Positions 326 to 29,525 of a stretch of DNA of 32,000 nt are shown piece by piece. The position numbers and the translations under genes were made by a program. The notes beneath the pieces are model-generated. The model saw only the letters and a program-made list of their open reading frames with translations. It searched no databases and was not told the origin of the DNA. Origin of the DNA: Candidatus Saccharimonadota bacterium (GTDB lineage Bacteria > Patescibacteriota > Saccharimonadia > Saccharimonadales > UBA4665). Every line of letters begins with the position of its first letter. The first letter of the stretch is position 1. The DNA lies in assembly GCA_016699935.1 (NCBI GenBank), contig CP064992.1:210001-242000 (forward strand), in the 5' to 3' direction.

Positions 326-1030
326 ATTTGTTCCTACCCCTTTTTCTCTGTAATAATTGCGCCCTGAGCGAGTTATATTATAGGTTTAGTTGTTGACCGC
401 TTGTTCCTATTTCTTCATTCCTTCATTGCATTATACACTGCGCATTGAACTACAGGCGTGTTTACACTGATGTAGGAATATGTCGGATATTTGACCCCAG
501 CAATTAAGTTTAGCGAGTAATAAAAAGACCTTCCAGAAACTTAAAAAGCCTACTGCAGTGCAAGATAGCAGACGCATTTCTAGCTTTTATTTTAGCGTTT
601 AGAACGATTACGGGCTATTGCACTTGACTGAAGGAATGCATTTCACGGAGTTGATATGGGTCGTCCAAAAGAATGCAGCAACGATTTTATATTCTGTATA
701 AGCAACATGAGCTTGCATTATGTATCTCTGTTAAACTATAATCTACTAGGTCATTCAGATATGCTCCTTTGTTTAGGGTGACGAGTGCCAGTGGCATTTC
801 GGAGGGCAACTTTGCGGTGCGAACCTTGTGTGCTTAGCAGCGAATTTTCTGGGTCGCGGAACGTGATCGAACTCGCCCAGCTAAAGAAGAACTTTTACAA
901 TATAACTCTGCTTTTTAACCCAATTTTTCAAACCAAGGAACTGTTTGGAAAATTGAGAGGAGAAGCATAGGTTTAGGTCGAAGCTTTTGGCTTTTTAGCC
1001 AAAACGAGACTTTACCATAAGCTTCGACGA

Positions 1031-2907: not shown

Positions 2908-3028
2908 TCTGAGTCTCAAAACTGTCTCCATTTGTACTTGTGTCATTCCCGCTAAGGCGGGAATCCATTTCATATATCTGGATCCCAGCCTTCGCTGGGA
3001 TGACATCGTGGGGGTTTTGAGCCTCAGG
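2908..3028 (+). mobile_element. 121-bp MITE-like element, copy 1
   Basis: Terminal inverted repeats (t)ctgagtctcaaaac ... gttttgagcctcagg. Internal hairpins gtcattcccgc-taag-gcgggaat.. and gatcccagcc-ttcg-ctgggat.. are present. It is nearly identical, in inverted orientation, to 15301-15421. Confidence 0.8.
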
Positions 3029-14689: not shown

Positions 14690-15298
14690 ATGGCGCGGAA
14701 AAAGAAGAACAAGCTACTCACCATGGATATAGACGAGTTGCAGCGGCGGTGGCGGCGGTGGAAGTATAAAAATACCGCGCTACTGGCAGTAAGCCTCGTT
14801 GCGTTTTTTTGGCTGGCACAGACACCCCAGGTAGATGCGGCCGTCAAAAGCGTCGGAAACCTAGGCTACCTGGGCGCCTTCATAACTGGCTTATTCTTTG
14901 TATCTACCTTTACGGTCGCACCTGCGGCTGTGGTGCTATTTCATCTGGCGGGTCAGTTCCACGCTCTGGAAATTGCCATTCTGGCAGGTGCCGGAGCGAT
15001 GGTAGGCGACTACTTCATTTTCCGGTTCATGAAAGACCGTGTATTTGCCGAGTTACTCCCACTCGTGCGTAAGCTACAAACGCCGCGCATGAAACTGCTA
15101 TTTAAAAGCCCCTACTTTGCCTGGGTCTTGCCTGTTGTCGGCGCCTTTGTCATCGCCTCTCCCCTGCCCGACGAGGTCGGCGTGGGCATGCTGGGAATGA
15201 GTCACGTCAAACAGTGGCAATTTTTCCTGCTGGCGTTTGTCTTGAACGCCGTCGGCATTTTCCTGATAGTCTCCGCTGCCCAGCTTGCAGGCAAATAA
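14690..15298 (+). CDS. Multi-pass membrane protein (DedA/VTT-like, tentative)
   Basis: There are 4-5 hydrophobic segments. LGYLGAFITGLFFVSTFTVAP, GAGAMVGDYFIFRF and ASPLPDEVGVGMLG are reminiscent of VTT-domain proteins. Confidence 0.35.
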   Translation: MARKKKNKLLTMDIDELQRRWRRWKYKNTALLAVSLVAFFWLAQTPQVDAAVKSVGNLGYLGAFITGLFFVSTFTVAPAAVVLFHLAGQFHALEIAILAGAGAMVGDYFIFRFMKDRVFAELLPLVRKLQTPRMKLLFKSPYFAWVLPVVGAFVIASPLPDEVGVGMLGMSHVKQWQFFLLAFVLNAVGIFLIVSAAQLAGK

Positions 15299-15300
15299 AA

Positions 15301-15421
15301 CCTGAGTCTCAAAACCCCCACGATGTCATCCCAGCGAAGGCTGGGATCCAGGTATATGAAATGGATTCCCGCCTTCGCGGGAATGACACAAGTACAAGTG
15401 GAGACGGTTATGAGACTCAGG
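15301..15421 (-). mobile_element. 121-bp MITE-like element, copy 2 (inverted relative to copy 1)
   Basis: cctgagtctcaaaac ... gttatgagactcagg TIRs. The same two internal hairpins are present (gtcatcccagcgaaggctgggat, attcccgccttcgcgggaat). It starts 2 bp after the stop of the 14690..15298 gene. Confidence 0.85.
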
Positions 15422-15431
15422 TAATAAAGGC

Positions 15432-15460
15432 TTGCAATTAAAGGATGTTTGTGCTAAAGT
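15432..15460 (+). promoter_or_regulatory. Sigma70-type promoter with extended -10, placed to give a leaderless leader-peptide mRNA
   Basis: TTGCAA (15432-15437), a 17-nt spacer, then tgcTAAAGT (-10 at 15455-15460). The ATG lies at 15468. Confidence 0.45.
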
Positions 15461-15467
15461 AGTATTT

Positions 15468-15527
15468 ATGTCCAAACAAGTTTTCGGCTTTAGCTTTTTT
15501 ACCACCCCCCGCAAGGAGGCCGTGTAA
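15468..15527 (+). CDS. Candidate Phe-rich leader peptide (19 aa) of pheA
   Basis: atg tcc aaa caa gtt ttc ggc ttt agc ttt ttt acc acc ccc cgc aag gag gcc gtg taa = MSKQVFGFSFFTTPRKEAV. Four of six consecutive codons are Phe. Confidence 0.45.
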   Translation: MSKQVFGFSFFTTPRKEAV

Positions 15528-15561
15528 GCTTGTAGCCTAAAAAACCACAACAGCAACCACC

Positions 15562-15585
15562 CGCCTCCACAAAGGAGGCGTTTTT
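15562..15585 (+). terminator. Attenuator/terminator hairpin that also sequesters the pheA Shine-Dalgarno
   Basis: cgcctcc-acaaa-ggaggcg followed by ttttt. The GGAGG in the 3' arm lies 12 nt before the pheA ATG (15591). Confidence 0.55.
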
Positions 15586-15590
15586 AATAT

Positions 15591-16897
15591 ATGACAACTA
15601 CGCTAACAGCACCAGCCGAATCATCGTTATTTATGCCTTCGCCCATGGGCATACAAGCTATGCCAAAAGACGGAGAGACAATACCTGGCGCATTCCACTT
15701 TATTGCTAACTGCGACTTTTTCGAAGTTGATATATCAGACAATGACGCCATTGCTGAAGCATGTAAACACATGGTTAGTTACGAAAGCCACGAGTTGCTT
15801 ATACAAGCATTGCTCAGCGGCGAAATTGATATAGCCATAATAGCAGTAGACAATAACAACTCCGGCCGGGTTGTGAGCGCCATAGAGGCACTTCGAGGCA
15901 AAAACCTCAGCATCATTGGCAAGACAGCCATAGCCGCTGACCAATATATCCTTCTCCCGCAAGGTGTTAGCGAAGATGATGTTGAACAAGTGGCATCACA
16001 AAAACCCGCCCTCGATCAAGCCAAACCAAACCTGCCACCTCAATGGACGGTGCTTGAACGCCCTGACACTGTCGGAAGTGCTATTGAGGTAGCTGCCGCA
16101 CATAGAGGTATTATCAACGCAGCAAAGTAACTGCGGCTATCGCCTCGAGCATGGCTGGAGAAACAACTGGACTCACTGTAGGAACAAGGGTTAGCCCGGA
16201 TGGCAACGCGACGACATTTTGGCTCGTGACGACTAAGCCAGAAAACTACCCCGATATCACTGCCATGACGCCAACTCACGCCGCTTTTACCTTCTCTACA
16301 GCTGATGAGGCTGGTGCGCTCCTAGAAGTGGTCAGATCATTTAGCCAAGGAGGAGAAGGTTACAACTTAACCGATATTGATTGCCACCTCTCACCCGACG
16401 ACAGCGATCAACCAGTCTTTATTGCCGAAGTTGCCCTCGATGAGCAGCATGGAGCAGAAGCGTTTCATGCAATCGCTAAGCAACTAGCTGGCAAATACGC
16501 GTTAAACATCCTCGGCATATACGCCGATAAAACGGACCCCTCCTTACACACTACCGTTACACGTCCTGCGAACGCCGAAGCCACACCCATACCCAAGATT
16601 TCATGGCATGGACGCGACCCAAGCGAGGGTTCTCAGGTTATCTACGTTCAGTCGAATGGCCAGACCGGTTCGCTCGAAGGCATGTTGACTGTTTTTGATG
16701 AGCTGGAAATTAACCTTACTACCATGACCCGGCCGATTGCGCCTGACAATAACGGCAAACGAGGTTTTGGGTTCGTTGTATCACCAGGTATCCCGGTAGA
16801 TACCGCCATCGCGGAGCTTAAGAAGCAAGGCTACGAAGCTGCCGCTTACACCTACAGAGATCAAGAACTCGTGCCGAATATCACGGCTAAATCTTAG
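15591..16897 (+). pseudogene. pheA: Prephenate dehydratase-like protein with ACT-type regulatory region(s); one frameshift ~16105-16135 as sequenced
   Basis: IDIAIIAVDNNNSGRV (cf. PDT ..VPIENS.EG.V). AAIASSMAGETTGL..DGNATTFWLV (cf. AAIAS..AA..YGL..D..N.TRF.V) spans the junction of ORFs 15591..16130 and 16151..16897. ACT-like segments: EAGALLEVVRSF..YNLTDID and SLEGMLTVFDELEINLTTMTRP. Confidence 0.6.
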
Positions 16898-17205: not shown

Positions 17206-17280
17206 TGGTGGCTCCTCCCAGACTCGAACTGGGACACAAGGCTCTTCAGGCCTCTGCTCTACCAACTGAGCTAAAGAGCC
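17206..17280 (-). tRNA. tRNA-Phe (anticodon GAA), CCA encoded
   Basis: The reverse complement is ggctctt-ta-gctc-agttggta-gagc-a-gaggc-ctGAAga-gcctt-gtgt-cccag-ttcgagt-ctggg-aggagcc-a-cca. Confidence 0.9.
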
Positions 17281-26077: not shown

Positions 26078-27536
26078 ATGGTTGTTCACCAGTCAGATAT
26101 GCGTCCGAAAGAAAAATGTGCCGTATTCGGGGTATTTGGAGCGAGCCATGCAGTAGAAGCGGCTCGTTTGTCTTTTTATGGCCTATGCGCTTTGCAGCAC
26201 CGTGGACAGGAAAGCTCCGGGATTGCCAGTAGCGACGGCAAAAAACTATATCGTCACAGCGAAGCCGGCTTAGTAGCTACTGTTTTCCGCGAAACAGATC
26301 TAGCAAACTTACCTGGCTATATCGCCATCGGCCATAACCGATACTCGACATCTGGTGGCCAAGACGGCTGCTTCAACCAACCTTTCATCGATACCGAACG
26401 TGGTTTTGCCTTTGCTCACAATGGCAATATACCGGACTGTGGCGAGCTTGAATCATTTCTCAGTAGCCGAAACGTATCGACTGACGAGCTTAACGATTCG
26501 GGCATGATGGCGGCAGCAATTGGGCTCAAGCTCGACGATGGTCTGTCATTGCCAGACGCCATAGCTGCTTGCTATCCACTTTTCACTGGTGTTTTTTCCG
26601 CTGTTGCCATGTCCAAAGATTGTCTCGTCGCCTTCCGTGACAAACATGGCATACGCCCGCTTTCGTTAGGTCAGCTCGAAGATGGTAGTTATGTCGCAGC
26701 TAGCGAAACATGCGCCCTCGACACCATTGCCGCGGCGCACATCCGAGAAATCAAACCAGGTGAAATGATAGCTATCGACAAAACTGGGATGCACGAAACT
26801 CAAGTAGTACCGGGTGAACAAAAGCTCGATATTTTCGAGTTTGTTTATTTCGCACGACCAGATAGCATCATACTTGGGCAAACCGTCAATGATGTCCGCA
26901 TGCAATTCGGCCGCGAAATGGCCGAAGAATGTCCAATAAACGCCGATGTTGTCATACCAGTACCTGACTCTGCTATACCAGCGGCTCTGGGCTACGCCGA
27001 AGCTAGTGGCATACCTTTCGAAATGAACCTTATCAAAACCGCTATATCCACCGAACCTTCATTCGCCCCACGGCCGAGCTACGAGAAAACGACCTTAAAT
27101 GAAGTTGAGATCCGCTCGTCAGCGCCATCCAGGGACGGCGTGTCGTACTTGTCGATGACTCGATTGTACGCGGCACTACCATGCGTAAAACTGTTTCTAT
27201 GCTGCGAGAGGCAGGGGCGACCGAAGTACACTTGATGATCAGCTCGCCGCCAGTGCTCTACCCAGATTTTATGGCATAAATACCCCAAACAATCCGAGCT
27301 AATCGCAACCGGCATGACTGTAGCAGAAATCAATGATTATGTCGGGTCTGACACGCTTCATTTTCTGTCATACGACGGTATGGTCTGCCCGACCACATTA
27401 CCAGAATCAGTTTTTCGGCATCTTGCTTTAACGGCGTTTACCTGACCCCATCGGCCAGCGCGCCAAAGATATTTCACACATCAATCTCGAAGATGTCCTA
27501 GTGAGTAAAAATATAATCACCCCTATACCAGCATGA
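26078..27536 (+). pseudogene. purF: Amidophosphoribosyltransferase; at least 5 frameshifts in the 3' third as sequenced
   Basis: KCAVFGVFG, ALQHRGQESSGIA and IGHNRYSTSG. In other frames: [60 protein letters not shown] and SCFNGVY. The reconstructed stop TGA 27534-27536 overlaps the purN ATG (ATGA). Confidence 0.85.
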
Positions 27537-28189
27537 GACCTTACCGAATAGCTAGACTTGCATCTGGCAGTGGCAGCACCGCCGAAGCGTTTATCCGTAG
27601 CGTACAGGCAAATGCCATGCCTATCGAAATACCATTAGTAATTAGTAACAACAAAGATGCCTATATCCTGGAGCGCGTTAAAAATCTAAATGATGAACTT
27701 GGCCTTGTCATTCAAACTGCCATCATAAACTCTCGCACACAGTCCTCAGACGAAAAAATAGTTCATGGTCAACAGACCGAAGCTGAGCAAGATGCGATAC
27801 TCGATATGCTACAAACAAACGACATCGATCTTGTGCTGTTACTGGGCTACGTGAAGCTTGTCGGTCCTAAGCTGATTGCTGCTTATGGTTGGAGGCCCGA
27901 ATATACTAGTGTATACCAGTCACATATGCTCAATACTCACCCCGGTCTTTTACCAAAGTCCATCGGGACACACGGTCTCGGCACCCAACAGTTTGTGCTA
28001 GACAATAAACAACGCGAAGCCGGTCAGACACTACATGTAGTCAGTGCGGAGTACGACAAGGGCCCGATCATAGCCGAAAACCGAGTGCCGGTCAAAATGG
28101 ATGACACGGCTGAGTCACTTTTCGCTCGCGTGCAGGCGACCGAAAAAGCGCACATTGCGGCTGATGTAATGTCTTTTCTAGAAGCTTAA
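27533..28189 (+). CDS. purN: Phosphoribosylglycinamide formyltransferase
   Basis: RLASGSGSTAEAFI, VISNNKDAYILERV, LNTHPGLLP and HVVSAEYDKGPIIAENRVPV..DTAESLFARV are typical formyltransferase blocks. The ORF is intact. Confidence 0.8.
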   Translation: MRPYRIARLASGSGSTAEAFIRSVQANAMPIEIPLVISNNKDAYILERVKNLNDELGLVIQTAIINSRTQSSDEKIVHGQQTEAEQDAILDMLQTNDIDLVLLLGYVKLVGPKLIAAYGWRPEYTSVYQSHMLNTHPGLLPKSIGTHGLGTQQFVLDNKQREAGQTLHVVSAEYDKGPIIAENRVPVKMDDTAESLFARVQATEKAHIAADVMSFLEA

Positions 28190-28211
28190 GCAAATTATAA
28201 AAAGGAGGGTC

Positions 28212-29525
28212 ATGGCTATGGCAACAGTGCTTATAATAGGTAGTGGCGGGCGTGAACATGCTCTAGCATGGGGTATGGCGCAGTCTTCAGCAGTCGAAAA
28301 AGTATATGTTTCACCTGGAAATGCCGGCACAGCACATGAACAAAAGTGCGAAAATGTTGCCGTTAATGGCGCCTACGAAACAGTAGCCTTTTGCCAAAAC
28401 AACCACATCGACCTTGTAGTAATTGGCCCTGAGGCACCTCTTGTCGAAGGGTTAAGTGATGCGCTGCGCGAGGCTTCGATTGTGGTATTCGGCGCCAGTA
28501 AACTTGCCGCACAGCTTGAAGGCAGCAAGGCATTCGCCACCCAGTTTATGCAAAAGCACGACATCACCATTCCTGAATCGGTTATCGTCACCTCTGCAGA
28601 AGGTGCTGATGCAGCCATGAAAATCTTTGGCGGACCAGAAAATAGCGTTCTAAAGGCAAATGGTTTAGCTGGCGGTAAAGGAGTTTTTCTACCAGATACT
28701 GCCGCTGAGGCAGCTGACGCAATTCAGAAAATTACCAGCGGTGCTATGGACGGTGACGGCAGCCGGTTTGTTGTACAAGCACGCAACCATGGCCCAGAAG
28801 TTTCTGTGTTTGTTTTGAGCGACGGAACGAATTACAAAGTTATCCCACTTGCTTCCCAAGACCACAAGCGCTTACTCGCTGGGGACAAGGGCCCAAATAC
28901 TGGCGGTATGGGTGTGTATGCCCCCCTACCAGACTGGATGCTCAGTGCAGCACAATGGGAAAAGATCGAAGTAATCGCCGAAAAAACCATCACCGCTATG
29001 GCAGCCGAAAACACCCCCTACCAAGGAGTGCTGTACATGGGGCTCATGCTCGCCGAAGAACTCGCTGGCGACCCGCTTGTGATAGAGTACAACGTCCGAT
29101 TTGGGGATCCGGAGACAGAAGTCATCATCCCGCTCCTCCATGGCAATGGTGTCGATATATACGACATGCTGTACGCAACCGCAGCAGGCACGTTAGCCGA
29201 CTTCGCAATGCCAAAAGAAATACATGGCGCTGCCCTGACCATATGTCTCGCCGCCGAAGGCTACCCTGACTCACCTATCCCCGGCAAAGTGGTTGAGGGG
29301 TTGGCTAATGAGTACCGTGATGTCACTGTATTTCATGGTAGTACCAAACTTGATGAATCTGGTCAGGTCGTGACTAGCGGTGGCCGCGTCTTGTATGTCA
29401 CTGGTCTAGGAGTCAACCTAGCAGCCGCCTCACAAGCAGCCAATGCTGCCATAGGCGAATCTGCCATACATTTCCCAGCCATGCAGTACCGCCCCGACAT
29501 CGCCTGGCGTGCCCGCAACCGCTAG
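28212..29525 (+). CDS. purD: Phosphoribosylamine--glycine ligase
   Basis: VLIIGSGGREHALAW, GPEAPLVEGL, LKANGLAGGKGV, GPNTGGMGVY, YNVRFGDPE and TSGGRVL. The ORF is intact at 437 aa. ATG 28218 has the better RBS spacing. Confidence 0.9.
   Translation: MAMATVLIIGSGGREHALAWGMAQSSAVEKVYVSPGNAGTAHEQKCENVAVNGAYETVAFCQNNHIDLVVIGPEAPLVEGLSDALREASIVVFGASKLAAQLEGSKAFATQFMQKHDITIPESVIVTSAEGADAAMKIFGGPENSVLKANGLAGGKGVFLPDTAAEAADAIQKITSGAMDGDGSRFVVQARNHGPEVSVFVLSDGTNYKVIPLASQDHKRLLAGDKGPNTGGMGVYAPLPDWMLSAAQWEKIEVIAEKTITAMAAENTPYQGVLYMGLMLAEELAGDPLVIEYNVRFGDPETEVIIPLLHGNGVDIYDMLYATAAGTLADFAMPKEIHGAALTICLAAEGYPDSPIPGKVVEGLANEYRDVTVFHGSTKLDESGQVVTSGGRVLYVTGLGVNLAAASQAANAAIGESAIHFPAMQYRPDIAWRARNR

Follow-up and report, generated by a model that had tools for sequence, protein, structure and literature searches.

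The DNA directly upstream of a prephenate dehydratase (PDT)-like gene in a Saccharibacteria genome very probably encodes a classical ribosome-mediated transcription attenuator, which senses charged tRNA-Phe and controls this gene. The locus lies in the window, the 32,000-nucleotide stretch of DNA that was analyzed, and has the elements of a leader-peptide attenuator: an ORF with codons for the end product, a terminator, an antiterminator that has one strand in common with the terminator and is backed by co-variation, and the corresponding geometry. The evidence comprises the features of the sequence and how well they are conserved, the ORF's coding signature, co-variation among segments 2, 3, and 4, spacing, and predicted energetics. 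The whole case is thus comparative or thermodynamic, and it is from this that we infer the transcription start, ribosome stalling, and the actual termination and read-through. Classical attenuation is apparently undescribed in the Saccharibacteria phylum. Literature searches for leader peptides or attenuation in Saccharibacteria, Patescibacteria, or the candidate phyla radiation (CPR) returned nothing relevant, and those pairing Saccharibacteria with prephenate dehydratase returned incidental mentions only.

The leader ORF is 19 codons in length and ends in TAA (15525–15527), with its four Phe codons falling within a run of six. A preliminary description of this DNA had reported this ORF and its Phe run, the complementarity between GGAGGC (15515–15520) and GCCTCC (15563–15568), the hairpin CGCCTCC-ACAAA-GGAGGCG-TTTTT, and a PDT-domain ORF starting at an ATG right after the hairpin. 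These were confirmed by translation, by inverted repeat I14, by the terminator scan, and by Pfam, respectively. The sequence observation is real, with every feature where it had been placed. Counted from the first base of the last Phe codon, segment 2 is 17 nt downstream; it takes in the final sense codons of the ORF together with its stop codon.

The putative promoter is composed of a −35 element (TTGCAA, 15432–15437), a 17-nt spacer, a TGc extended −10 motif, and a −10 element (TAAAGT, 15455–15460). It had been called a good promoter. Only 8 of 12 consensus positions match in addition to the TGn extended −10, and because of this the promoter scan of the window did not flag it, but its position is conserved in 20 leaders. 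Stacking these 20 on the ATG yields the consensus TGTGnTAnAAT, with the −10 box at −13 to −8 from the A of the ATG; the box ends about 6–8 nt before the ATG across leaders and 7 nt before it in the window. No Shine-Dalgarno (SD)-like sequence was found before the leader ATG in the 20 stacked leaders, and none is possible upstream of the leader ORF in the window. With the −10 box ending so close to the ATG, the transcript should be leaderless. This had been proposed before and is supported by the fixed −10 register, and we deduce the leaderless status from promoter geometry only.

Table 1. Features of the leader, the gene downstream of it, and their surroundings (window coordinates).
Feature	Coordinates	Strand	Basis or remark
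MITE-like palindromic element, terminal inverted repeats CCTGAGTCTCA / TGAGACTCAGG	15301..15421	.	Inverted repeats I1, I2, I4, I5
Putative sigma-70-type promoter	15432..15460	+	Sequence; register kept across leaders
Leader-peptide ORF, MSKQVFGFSFFTTPRKEAV*	15468..15527	+	Translation; conserved in relatives
Regulatory codons F-G-F-S-F-F, 4 Phe in 6 codons	15483..15500	+	Putative stall site
Segment 1, GGCUUUAGCUU, Gly-Phe-Ser-Phe codons	15486..15496	+	Pairs with 3' part of segment 2
Segment 2, GGAGGC CGUG UAAGCUUGUAGCC	15515..15537	+	Antiterminator 5' strand; inverted repeat I14
Segment 3, antiterminator 3' strand	15547..15568	+	Folds of transcript truncated before segment 4
Intrinsic terminator 3:4, CGCCUCC-ACAAA-GGAGGCG + U5	15562..15585	+	Terminator scan
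Prephenate-dehydratase-like gene (pheA-like)	15591..16897	+	Pfam PDT; homologues
tRNA-Phe(GAA) gene	17206..17280	-	ARAGORN; context only

The terminator hairpin was the top terminator-like match of the scan and has a stem of 7 bp, six of them G-C. Its 5' arm is formed by the last 7 nt of segment 3 (15562–15568). Of the dinucleotide shuffles of the window leader, only 0.35% contain 6 or more nt perfectly complementary to this arm; for segment 3, complements of this minimum length arise in 0.25–1.9% of shuffled leaders per locus. The 1:2 hairpin forms in the unconstrained fold (predicted −16.4 kcal/mol), and the predicted stability of the terminator is −12.7 kcal/mol. As alternative states of the window leader, the antiterminator is predicted at −15.7 kcal/mol versus −13.7 kcal/mol for the terminator. 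In the fold of the transcript truncated before segment 4, the antiterminator is a three-tier helix (GGAGGC:GCCUCC, GUG:CAC, and GCUUGU:ACA..AGC). It is the unconstrained minimum free energy (MFE) structure of the truncated transcript in 13 of 15 leaders, and in all 15 once a ribosome occupies the first Phe codon. A ribosome placed at the stop codon masks segment 2 in the constrained folds, and the terminator then forms in 15 of 15. The constrained folds agree with the proposed geometry, in which stalling at the regulatory codons would keep segment 2 accessible and a ribosome near the stop codon would cover it. The switch logic proposed earlier is supported but was incomplete, as the leader has four segments, with a predicted 1:2 hairpin and an antiterminator of three helices, which together account for the remaining conserved blocks. 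Once segment 4 is present, the most stable fold usually contains the terminator, even with the Phe codons occupied by a ribosome; read-through must therefore be kinetic, a point against the attenuator.

In the mechanism that we propose, transcription would start at the leader AUG or one nucleotide before it, yielding a leaderless transcript. When Phe-tRNA is plentiful, the ribosome would reach the stop codon and cover segment 2. Segment 3 would then pair with segment 4, and the resulting terminator would stop transcription before pheA. When Phe-tRNA is scarce, the ribosome would stall on the FGFSFF codons and occupy segment 1, its leading edge halting shortly before segment 2, the start of which is 17 nt past the last Phe codon. 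Segment 2, being free, would pair with segment 3 to form the three-tier antiterminator, the terminator would be blocked, and RNA polymerase would read into pheA. Both 1:2 and 3:4 would form on an untranslated leader, leading to termination.

We found 17 leaders 5' of a homologous PDT-like gene in Saccharibacteria MAGs or contigs, along with two 5' of a DAHP-synthase/PDT operon and two 5' of trpB. The scan of a genome collection gave nine loci, and a metagenome scan with a PheA alignment gave three, one of them with a leader. No leader was found in the relatives L008, L019/L020, L022, and L027, which counts against the attenuator. The preliminary description had made its proposal depend on whether the mini-ORF and the GGAGGC/GCCTCC segments are conserved, and the result is strongly in its favor, with the PheA proteins concerned only 37–73% identical. 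Leaders of orthologous PDT genes occur in differing genomic contexts. Among type A leaders, the F-x-F-S-F-F-T codons vary only at third positions (TTT/TTC, GGC/GGA/GGT, and ACC/ACT/ACG) or from Phe to Tyr. The GGAGGC motif is invariant even though it is read in three frames, as KEA/QEA, EGGR, or HGG/FGG. The N- and C-termini of the leader peptide, its length, and the reading frame at its 3' end vary freely among relatives.

In other clades, the three window-type segments (GGAGGC/GCCUCC/GGAGGC) change as a set. Type B and C leaders (MNKIVxFFWSFFFTPQPVAVRS.. and MKTVNTYSYFWFTETTPAV) have GGCGGU/ACCGCC/GGCGGU, and one leader of an aro operon has GGCGAUU/AAUCGCC/GGCGAUU; segment 2 repeats segment 4 in all of the leaders. 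The 1:2 hairpin of type A is paired in 88.9% of cells (9 leaders), as compared to 17–67% in slid controls, with co-variation no better than in shuffles. For the antiterminator, 90.8% of cells are paired versus 40–53% in slid controls. Because MAFFT placed segment 4 out of register when given all three types, we counted co-variation on a fixed-length alignment anchored by hand on the three segments, and in this alignment, whose anchoring favors structure, the 2:3 helix is paired in 89.8% and the 3:4 helix in 95.9% of cells versus 30–62% in slid controls. The same two columns of segment 3 change on both sides with both partners, a score reached by none of 500 shuffles, although the between-clade co-variation amounts to roughly two or three evolutionary events. 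Within type A alone co-variation is not significant, since the stems are nearly invariant.

The distance from the last regulatory codon to segment 2 is 15–18 nt across 17 leaders, PDT-linked and aro together. For 14 of 15 leaders the last codon of the run is 17–18 nt from segment 2, and for L007 it is 15 nt away; in the two aro leaders the value derived from the sequences is 16–17 nt. The terminator stem has 6–7 bp in 15 PDT-linked leaders and 5–9 bp in L010 and L011, and a run of four to seven U follows it in all leaders.

These comparisons bear on explanations other than transcription attenuation. The hairpin could instead act in translation by hiding a pheA SD (GGAGG, 15574–15578), which a stalled ribosome would free without any termination. 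The 3' arm does read GGAGG in the window, with the pheA ATG 12 nt later, and the alternative GGAGGC:GCCUCC pairing would free it. However, a spacing of 12 nt is long compared to the clear SDs of the window, which lie 3–8 nt from the start and in one case 11 nt. The hairpin ends 10–55 nt before the pheA ATG in relatives (~55 nt in L004 and 31 nt in L007), and the corresponding arm reads GGCGG(U) in types B and C, unlike an SD. The U-run after the stem, a hallmark of intrinsic terminators, would also be needless for hiding an SD. The earlier proposal that the 3' arm is the pheA SD is therefore not borne out as a conserved feature, and we rejected SD sequestration as the conserved mechanism on the grounds of spacing and the non-SD arms of other clades. 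Translational attenuation at this locus is accordingly unlikely. The arrangement could also be a chance ORF next to an ordinary terminator of the upstream co-oriented gene (14690–15298), considering that the hairpin is intergenic and downstream of that gene and that terminator-like matches are common in the region (8 found versus 3.2 expected). But the ORF, segment 2, and the terminator recur beside other upstream genes, namely an opposite-strand gene in L001, rsmB in type B, and rpsI in L010 and L011. Together with the triple co-variation and the promoter register, these comparative data effectively refute chance.

It is very unlikely that the mini-ORF encodes a small hydrophobic peptide with its own function, or that the terminated RNA is an sRNA, with the adjacency to pheA being mere synteny. 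The FxFSFFT core is conserved beyond Phe, including Ser and Thr, as might be expected of a functional peptide. The Ser, Gly, and Phe codons, however, are also those of segment 1 in the predicted 1:2 hairpin, so that RNA constraints explain their conservation, and the free variation in termini, length, and 3'-end frame speaks against a peptide function. In every case the element directly precedes an aromatic-pathway gene on the same strand, and its codon content tracks the pathway step: Phe-rich before PDT alone, Tyr/Trp/Phe before DAHP synthase-PDT (L010 and L011), and Trp-containing before trpB. Direct sensing of tRNA-Phe or phenylalanine by a T-box or riboswitch, with the ORF being incidental, would also fit conserved RNA blocks and alternative terminator and antiterminator structures. 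We consider this extremely improbable. At the gathering threshold, Rfam gave three tRNAs only in the whole window; no T-box or riboswitch was among the sub-threshold matches, and for 15400–15650 a search permitting E values of up to 10 still gave no T-box match. The RNA is short, at about 120 nt, and the ORF is kept with synonymous changes in all leaders. The fixed distance of 15–18 nt from aromatic codon to segment 2 makes sense only for a ribosome.

As compared to known systems, the transcription attenuator proposed here most nearly recalls pheL-pheA of Enterobacteria and other Gammaproteobacteria. Both have a short ORF with a run of Phe codons 5' of pheA, a terminator, and a mutually exclusive antiterminator, and a 1:2 'pause' hairpin like that of pheL is predicted here. 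The Phe run of Escherichia coli pheL (FFFTFP) is followed by a Thr codon, as is that of the window leader (FFT). The two differ in that their stems are not homologous in sequence, the window leader appears to be leaderless whereas pheL is SD-led, and the gene here encodes a stand-alone divergent PDT with two ACT-like domains rather than a chorismate mutase-PDT. The best sub-threshold Rfam match, obtained with permissive filters, was to RF01859 Phe_leader (15467–15588, 20 bits, E = 0.38) and spans exactly the ATG to the T-run; at 20 bits versus a gathering threshold of 55, the window leader is not a member of this family. A survey that asked for five or more in-frame Phe codons in the 60 nt before pheA, with at least two next to each other, found pheL to be nearly confined to Gammaproteobacteria (PMC3082878), whereas the present leaders belong to the phylum Saccharibacteria. 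The window leader has only four Phe codons, below what that survey required, and type B relatives have four or five; the low number in the window leader, fewer than in enterobacterial pheL, counts against the attenuator.

Leaderless leader-peptide attenuators are known from Corynebacterium glutamicum, where they precede ilvB, trp, leuA, and aroF (PMC4046766). The likeness lies in a leader peptide apparently translated without a ribosome-binding site and in the attenuation of genes for amino-acid biosynthesis. The aroF leader carries the mixed aromatic codons Phe-Tyr-Phe (PMC4046766) and in this resembles the Tyr/Trp/Phe leaders before DAHP synthase. C. glutamicum belongs to a different phylum, Actinobacteria, and the leaderless status of the present transcripts is suggested by promoter geometry only. 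E. coli trpL shares the four-segment logic (1:2, 2:3, and 3:4) of the textbook model, with the regulatory codons in or near segment 1 and the stop codon placed such that a terminating ribosome masks segment 2. A different amino acid is sensed, however. In type B, moreover, six sense codons separate segment 2 from the stop codon, so that the ribosome would pass through segment 2 while translating instead of halting beside it.

The protein encoded downstream of the leader is divergent; besides its PDT and ACT domains it has an additional ACT-like domain at the C-terminus. It scores below the NCBIfam equivalog cut-offs, and its best PDB relative is 6vh5. In the window, a 1-nt frameshift near 16106–16130 (located by alignment) splits the gene into 15591–16130 and 16151–16897. 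Intact homologues of 435 amino acids have 69–73% identity and carry the PDT domain. ORF2 matches a protein from Candidatus Saccharibacteria with 100% identity. Given the frameshift, the switch here may guard a pseudogene, or else the assembly may be in error.

It is reasonably probable that Saccharibacteria carry a small regulon of leaderless aromatic-codon attenuators, in which Phe is paired with the divergent double-ACT PDT-like gene (sometimes together with trpS), Tyr/Trp/Phe with DAHP synthase-PDT, and Trp with trpB. A rule that a Trp codon in the leader always accompanies a downstream trpS holds for type B but fails for L021, which has the codon without trpS.

As the mechanism is that of textbook attenuation, it leaves the view of how such switches work unchanged, and the value of the Saccharibacteria attenuator would lie in where it is found and what it reveals. 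If real, the regulon would give the CPR (Patescibacteria) its first described cis-regulatory attenuation system, and it would point to tight transcription-translation coupling in the ultra-small cells of Saccharibacteria. It would also indicate that the orphan PDT-like enzyme really serves phenylalanine supply, with a conserved Phe-sensing attenuator being independent functional evidence that ties the divergent PDT-domain protein to this role and marks it as worth regulating. Saccharibacteria have reduced genomes, are mostly episymbiotic, and are generally described as being without amino-acid biosynthesis (PMC7427843). The regulon would imply that at least environmental Saccharibacteria regulate and depend on their own synthesis of aromatic amino acids, and not wholly on a host. 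For this phylum, in which there is hardly any molecular genetics, the ~17-nt spacing and leaderless start offer testable predictions on ribosome footprint, leaderless initiation, and transcription-translation coupling. With their four co-varying stem versions, the ~20 leaders could be the starting point of a new RNA family, and could also be a template for searching CPR genomes for more attenuators.

The MITE-like element sits between the stop codon of the upstream gene and the leader promoter and is context, outside the switch. It is absent from the equivalent site in the close relative L002, and a second copy occurs in the window at about 2908–3028. No further aromatic-pathway gene was found among the ORFs scanned in the 32 kb. 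The tRNA-Phe gene downstream of pheA is likewise found near pheA in L001–L004, L006, and L009.

The elements described preliminarily at 15432-15600 were all found in their places (table), and the reading given to them, attenuation of the downstream prephenate dehydratase-like (PDT) gene, pheA, by a Phe-rich leader peptide, was essentially right. On comparative evidence only, the region is very probably a classical four-segment Phe-codon attenuator that acts by transcription termination, probably on a leaderless transcript. It would work like enterobacterial pheL-pheA and trpL, with segments 1 and 2 forming a pause hairpin, 2 and 3 an antiterminator, and 3 and 4 a terminator. The 140-nt leader region folds somewhat more stably than its shuffles (z = -2.2).

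Positions of leader elements, related leaders and neighbouring genes in the window and in loci of relatives (L numbers)
Feature	Locus	Position	Detail
-35 box	Window	15432-15437	TTGCAA, then 17-nt spacer
Extended -10	Window	15455-15460 (-10 box)	tgcTAAAGT; 7 nt 5' of ATG
Leader ORF	Window	ATG 15468; stop 15525-15527	MSKQVFGFSFFTTPRKEAV; 19 codons
Phe codons (n = 4)	Window	inside 15483-15500	
Thr after aromatic run	Window	15498-15503	Also L012, L021, L010
GGAGGC	Window	15515-15520	Complement of GCCTCC, 15563-15568
Terminator hairpin	Window	15562-15585	CGCCTCC-ACAAA-GGAGGCG + TTTTT; top terminator-like site of local scan
PDT-domain ORF	Window	ATG 15591	Pfam PDT (prephenate dehydratase) match
trpS, type B	L012	4339-5379	Equivalent positions in L013, L015, L017
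aro leader	L010	1572-1683	MSTTTQNCAYWFASFKKAIV; GGCGAUU / AAAUCGCC / GGCGAUUU
aro leader	L011	1555-1667	MLRVSFWNYAYFINPRVATSS
Candidate Trp attenuator	L010	5034-5176	5' of small unknown ORF and trpB
Candidate Trp attenuator	L011	4955-5095	5' of small unknown ORF and trpB
tRNA-Phe(GAA)	L001	8566-8641	
tRNA-Phe(GAA)	L002	4494-4569	
tRNA-Phe(GAA)	L004	4317-4392	
tRNA-Phe(GAA)	L006	4498-4573	
tRNA-Phe(GAA)	L009	4423-4498	

The decisive check was conservation of the mini-ORF and its complementary segments in relatives. Loci encoding PDT homologues were gathered through exact-protein look-ups, a representative-genome scan and a metagenome scan; those named here are all from Saccharibacteria/Saccharimonadales MAGs. 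A leader ORF and hairpin lie directly 5' of the PDT gene in 17 distinct cases, including the window; no leader was found at L008, L019/L020, L022 or L027. Type A comprises the window and nine others, with leader peptides that include MSKYGFGFSFFTISHQEAL, MISYKPFGFSFFTNPLEGGRVSL, MNVRQEFFFSFFTTPSHGGIAS, MSYVTFTFSFFTTSFGGAES, MSSLYYGFSYFTFSAQEAV and MVEMFSFSFYFTPLAWRR. Codon differences in its F-x-F-S-F-F-T core are confined to synonymous third-position changes and Phe-to-Tyr replacements, as expected of an ORF that is translated. GGAGGC is invariant in this type though read in three frames (K-E-A, E-G-G-R and H/F-G-G), and the ORF stops at either of two stop codons in a conserved block, GTGTAAGCTTGTAG; together these are what a constraint on the RNA would produce. 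Type B (six loci, five in the context rpoA-rplQ-rplM-rpsI-rsmB, leader, PDT-trpS) has the leader peptide MNKIV[SAT]FFW[GS]FFFTPQPVAVRS..K and the terminator ACCGCC-loop-GGCGGU followed by U5-6; its leader ORF holds GUGGCGGUU, a copy of the terminator 3' arm. Type C is L021, with leader MKTVNTYSYFWFTETTPAV and segments GCGGUU, GACCGCC and GGCGGU.

Several smaller features accompany these leaders. The block GTGTAAGCTTGTAG (15521-15537 in the window) has stops in two frames, the leader ending in TAA or TAG by lineage, as set by a 1-nt indel further upstream. GGAGG with TTG-TAG 10 nt after it resembles a minimal start-stop unit. At type B loci, trpS (tryptophan-tRNA ligase; TIGR00233, 278 bits) lies 20 nt downstream of the PDT gene, and the leader has one Trp codon within its Phe run (FFWSFFFT). 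One attenuator may control both genes; a correspondence between leader Trp codon and downstream trpS fails in L021, which has the codon and no trpS. Nearly every PDT-linked leader has a Thr codon straight after its aromatic run (FFT, FFFTP, FWFT, YFTF), reminiscent of FFFTFP in the E. coli pheL peptide; chance, a constraint on the RNA or an effect of the nascent peptide could each explain this. At L027, an IS200/IS605-type Y1 transposase gene (491-949, minus strand) lies immediately 5' of a shortened PDT homologue without leader (1012-2166; 384 aa), and the mobile element may have removed the attenuator.

Type A stems are nearly invariant: pairings are well kept (antiterminator 90.8% paired versus 40-53% in slid controls; 1:2 hairpin 88.9% versus 17-67%) and co-variation is not statistically supported. 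The types were compared in a fixed-length alignment anchored by hand on segments 2, 3 and 4, because MAFFT mis-registered segment 4. Here pairing is 89.8% in the 2:3 helix and 95.9% in the 3:4 helix, and changes at the same two segment-3 columns are matched in both partner segments (A-U to C-G and C-G to U-A). The observed co-variation score was reached by none of 500 shuffles. This between-type co-variation is strong evidence, drawn from only a few evolutionary events. Additional independent instances are GGCGAUU/AAUCGCC, a fourth version, and GGGAG/CUCCC, a trpB version. Perfect complements to segment 3 of at least 6 nt occurred in only 0.25-1.9% of shuffled leaders per locus.

The alternative pairing originally proposed, GGAGGC:GCCUCC, is present as a 6-bp helix but is incomplete. 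The predicted antiterminator is larger and three-tiered (GGAGGC:GCCUCC, GUG:CAC and GCUUGU:AYAAGC), which explains why the blocks GTGTAAGCTTGTAG and AAGCAACCAC, otherwise puzzling, are conserved. The two states were folded for 15 leaders with ViennaRNA and a 30-nt ribosome mask. For transcripts ending before segment 4, 2:3 was the optimal fold in 13 of 15 leaders unmasked and in all 15 with the ribosome on the first Phe codon; with the mask at the stop codon, the terminator formed in 15 of 15. Without a ribosome, segment 1 (GGCUUUAGCUU, Gly-Phe-Ser-Phe codons) paired with AAGCUUGUAGCC of segment 2 and the terminator formed. Predicted energies for the same window RNA are -15.7 (antiterminator state) and -13.7 kcal/mol (terminator state); the 1:2 hairpin is predicted at -16.4 kcal/mol. 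Once segment 4 was present, a ribosome on the Phe codons usually left the terminator-containing fold optimal, so read-through would have to be kinetic. Measured from the first nucleotide of the last run codon, segment 2 begins 17-18 nt downstream in 14 of 15 leaders and 15 nt downstream in L007 (16-17 nt, from sequences, in two aro leaders, L010 and L011). The distance from the A-site codon to the leading edge of the ribosome is established, and a spacing of 15-18 nt would fit the place of that edge when the last run codon occupies the A site of a stalled ribosome.

The window promoter, previously called good, lies where described but matches the consensus at only 8 of 12 positions and was unflagged by the scan. 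Leaderless transcription gains support from promoter register: 20 leaders stacked at the ATG have the consensus TGTGnTAnAAT, with the -10 hexamer at -13 to -8 from the A of ATG (shifted by one in type B) and TTGCAA or TTGACA often 17 nt upstream. From this register we infer that transcription probably starts at the A of the leader ATG or one base before, which would leave no space for a Shine-Dalgarno sequence. A MITE-like palindromic element (15301-15421; second copy ~2908-3028), with terminal inverted repeats CCTGAGTCTCA/TGAGACTCAGG and internal palindromes GTCATCCCAGCGAAGGCTGGGATCC and GGATTCCCGCCTTCGCGGGAATGAC, is inserted just 5' of the -35 box, which lies at the edge of a longer 32-nt inverted repeat; the close relative L002 lacks the element at this spot.

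The suggestion that the hairpin 3' arm is the pheA Shine-Dalgarno sequence found no support. The arm lies 12 nt from the ATG, versus 3-8 nt for clear Shine-Dalgarno sequences in the window (one 11 nt); in relatives, 10-55 nt separate the end of the hairpin from the ATG, and the arm is GGCGG in other leader types. A U-run follows the stem in every leader, and the comparison indicates transcription termination as the conserved function of the hairpin.

A covariance model built from type A leaders scored all of these at 64-134 bits and types B and C weakly, and found two further leaders, at L010 and L011, 5' of a DAHP-synthase (aroFGH)-PDT operon. These have mixed aromatic codons and terminators and, judged by their promoters, are probably leaderless; L010 carries the fourth co-varying stem version (GGCGAUU/AAUCGCC/GGCGAUU). 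The trpB leaders of the same loci, MSKIYGNTINRSISTQTTWQNSHNVRESI and MSNLQDDQIIPNLGQQGAWRNSQDTWESI, contain ...TTWQNSHNVRESI and ...GAWRNSQDTWESI and have GGGAG/CUCCC/GGGAG segments and U6; with only 1-2 Trp codons, they are weaker candidates than the Phe leaders. Leader codon composition tracks the enzyme controlled: Phe-rich before PDT, Tyr/Trp/Phe before the common-pathway DAHP synthase, and Trp before trpB.

These comparisons place the window leader in a small, apparently new family of aromatic-codon attenuators in Saccharibacteria; the mechanism is textbook, the phylum unexpected. The leader falls outside Rfam Phe_leader (20 bits versus a gathering score of 55), which is the top sub-threshold match and spans the leader exactly. 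A 2010 survey of all sequenced bacteria, which required at least five Phe codons, placed pheL almost exclusively in Gammaproteobacteria and had a few candidates from Bacteroides and Desulfobacterium (PMC3082878); the window leader falls short of that number. In Corynebacterium glutamicum, leader peptides of ilvB, trp, leuA and aroF (the last with Phe-Tyr-Phe) are translated without a ribosome-binding site (PMC4046766). In the literature covered, which is incomplete, no paper linked leader-peptide attenuation to Saccharibacteria, Patescibacteria or the candidate phyla radiation (CPR), and we provisionally regard it as undescribed in Saccharibacteria. The attenuator gives functional meaning to a divergent PDT-like gene and offers testable handles on translation-transcription coupling in CPR bacteria.

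The regulated gene is split in the window (ORFs 15591-16130 and 16151-16897); homologues at 69-73% identity are intact (435 aa). Frame 1 stops at 16128-16130, and the PDT motif TAAIASSMAGETTGL goes on in the -1 frame from 16106, in the second ORF. In an alignment with two relatives, a 1-nt deletion falls near the A-run 16124-16126; deletion in this run is the likeliest cause, and the frameshift would reflect a homopolymer error of the assembly or else a young pseudogene. The second half is 100% identical to a Candidatus Saccharibacteria hypothetical protein. The protein falls under all NCBIfam prephenate-dehydratase equivalog cut-offs (96 bits versus 219-359) and is, by its sequence, a divergent PDT, with 6vh5 as best solved-structure relative. 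Its catalytic motif has TTF in place of TRF, and GNATTFW is invariant. An extra C-terminal ACT-like domain, ~135 aa beyond PDT and ACT (residues ~300-435 of the repaired protein), is kept in all homologues and in one, P0012, weakly matches the N-terminal regulatory (ACT) region of phenylalanine 4-monooxygenase (TIGR01268, E = 1.7e-4); a second amino-acid-binding regulatory domain is suggested.

No further aromatic-pathway genes were found among the window ORFs scanned. A tRNA-Phe(GAA) gene (17206-17280, minus strand) is conserved close to the Phe-attenuated PDT gene at type A loci; in L004 it lies ~70 nt downstream of pheA on the same strand and could be co-transcribed with it. The window also keeps purine-biosynthesis genes at 26078-29525, a glutamine amidotransferase (purF-like) and phosphoribosylglycinamide synthetase (purD), and this Saccharibacterium thus has more biosynthetic capacity than minimal oral strains.
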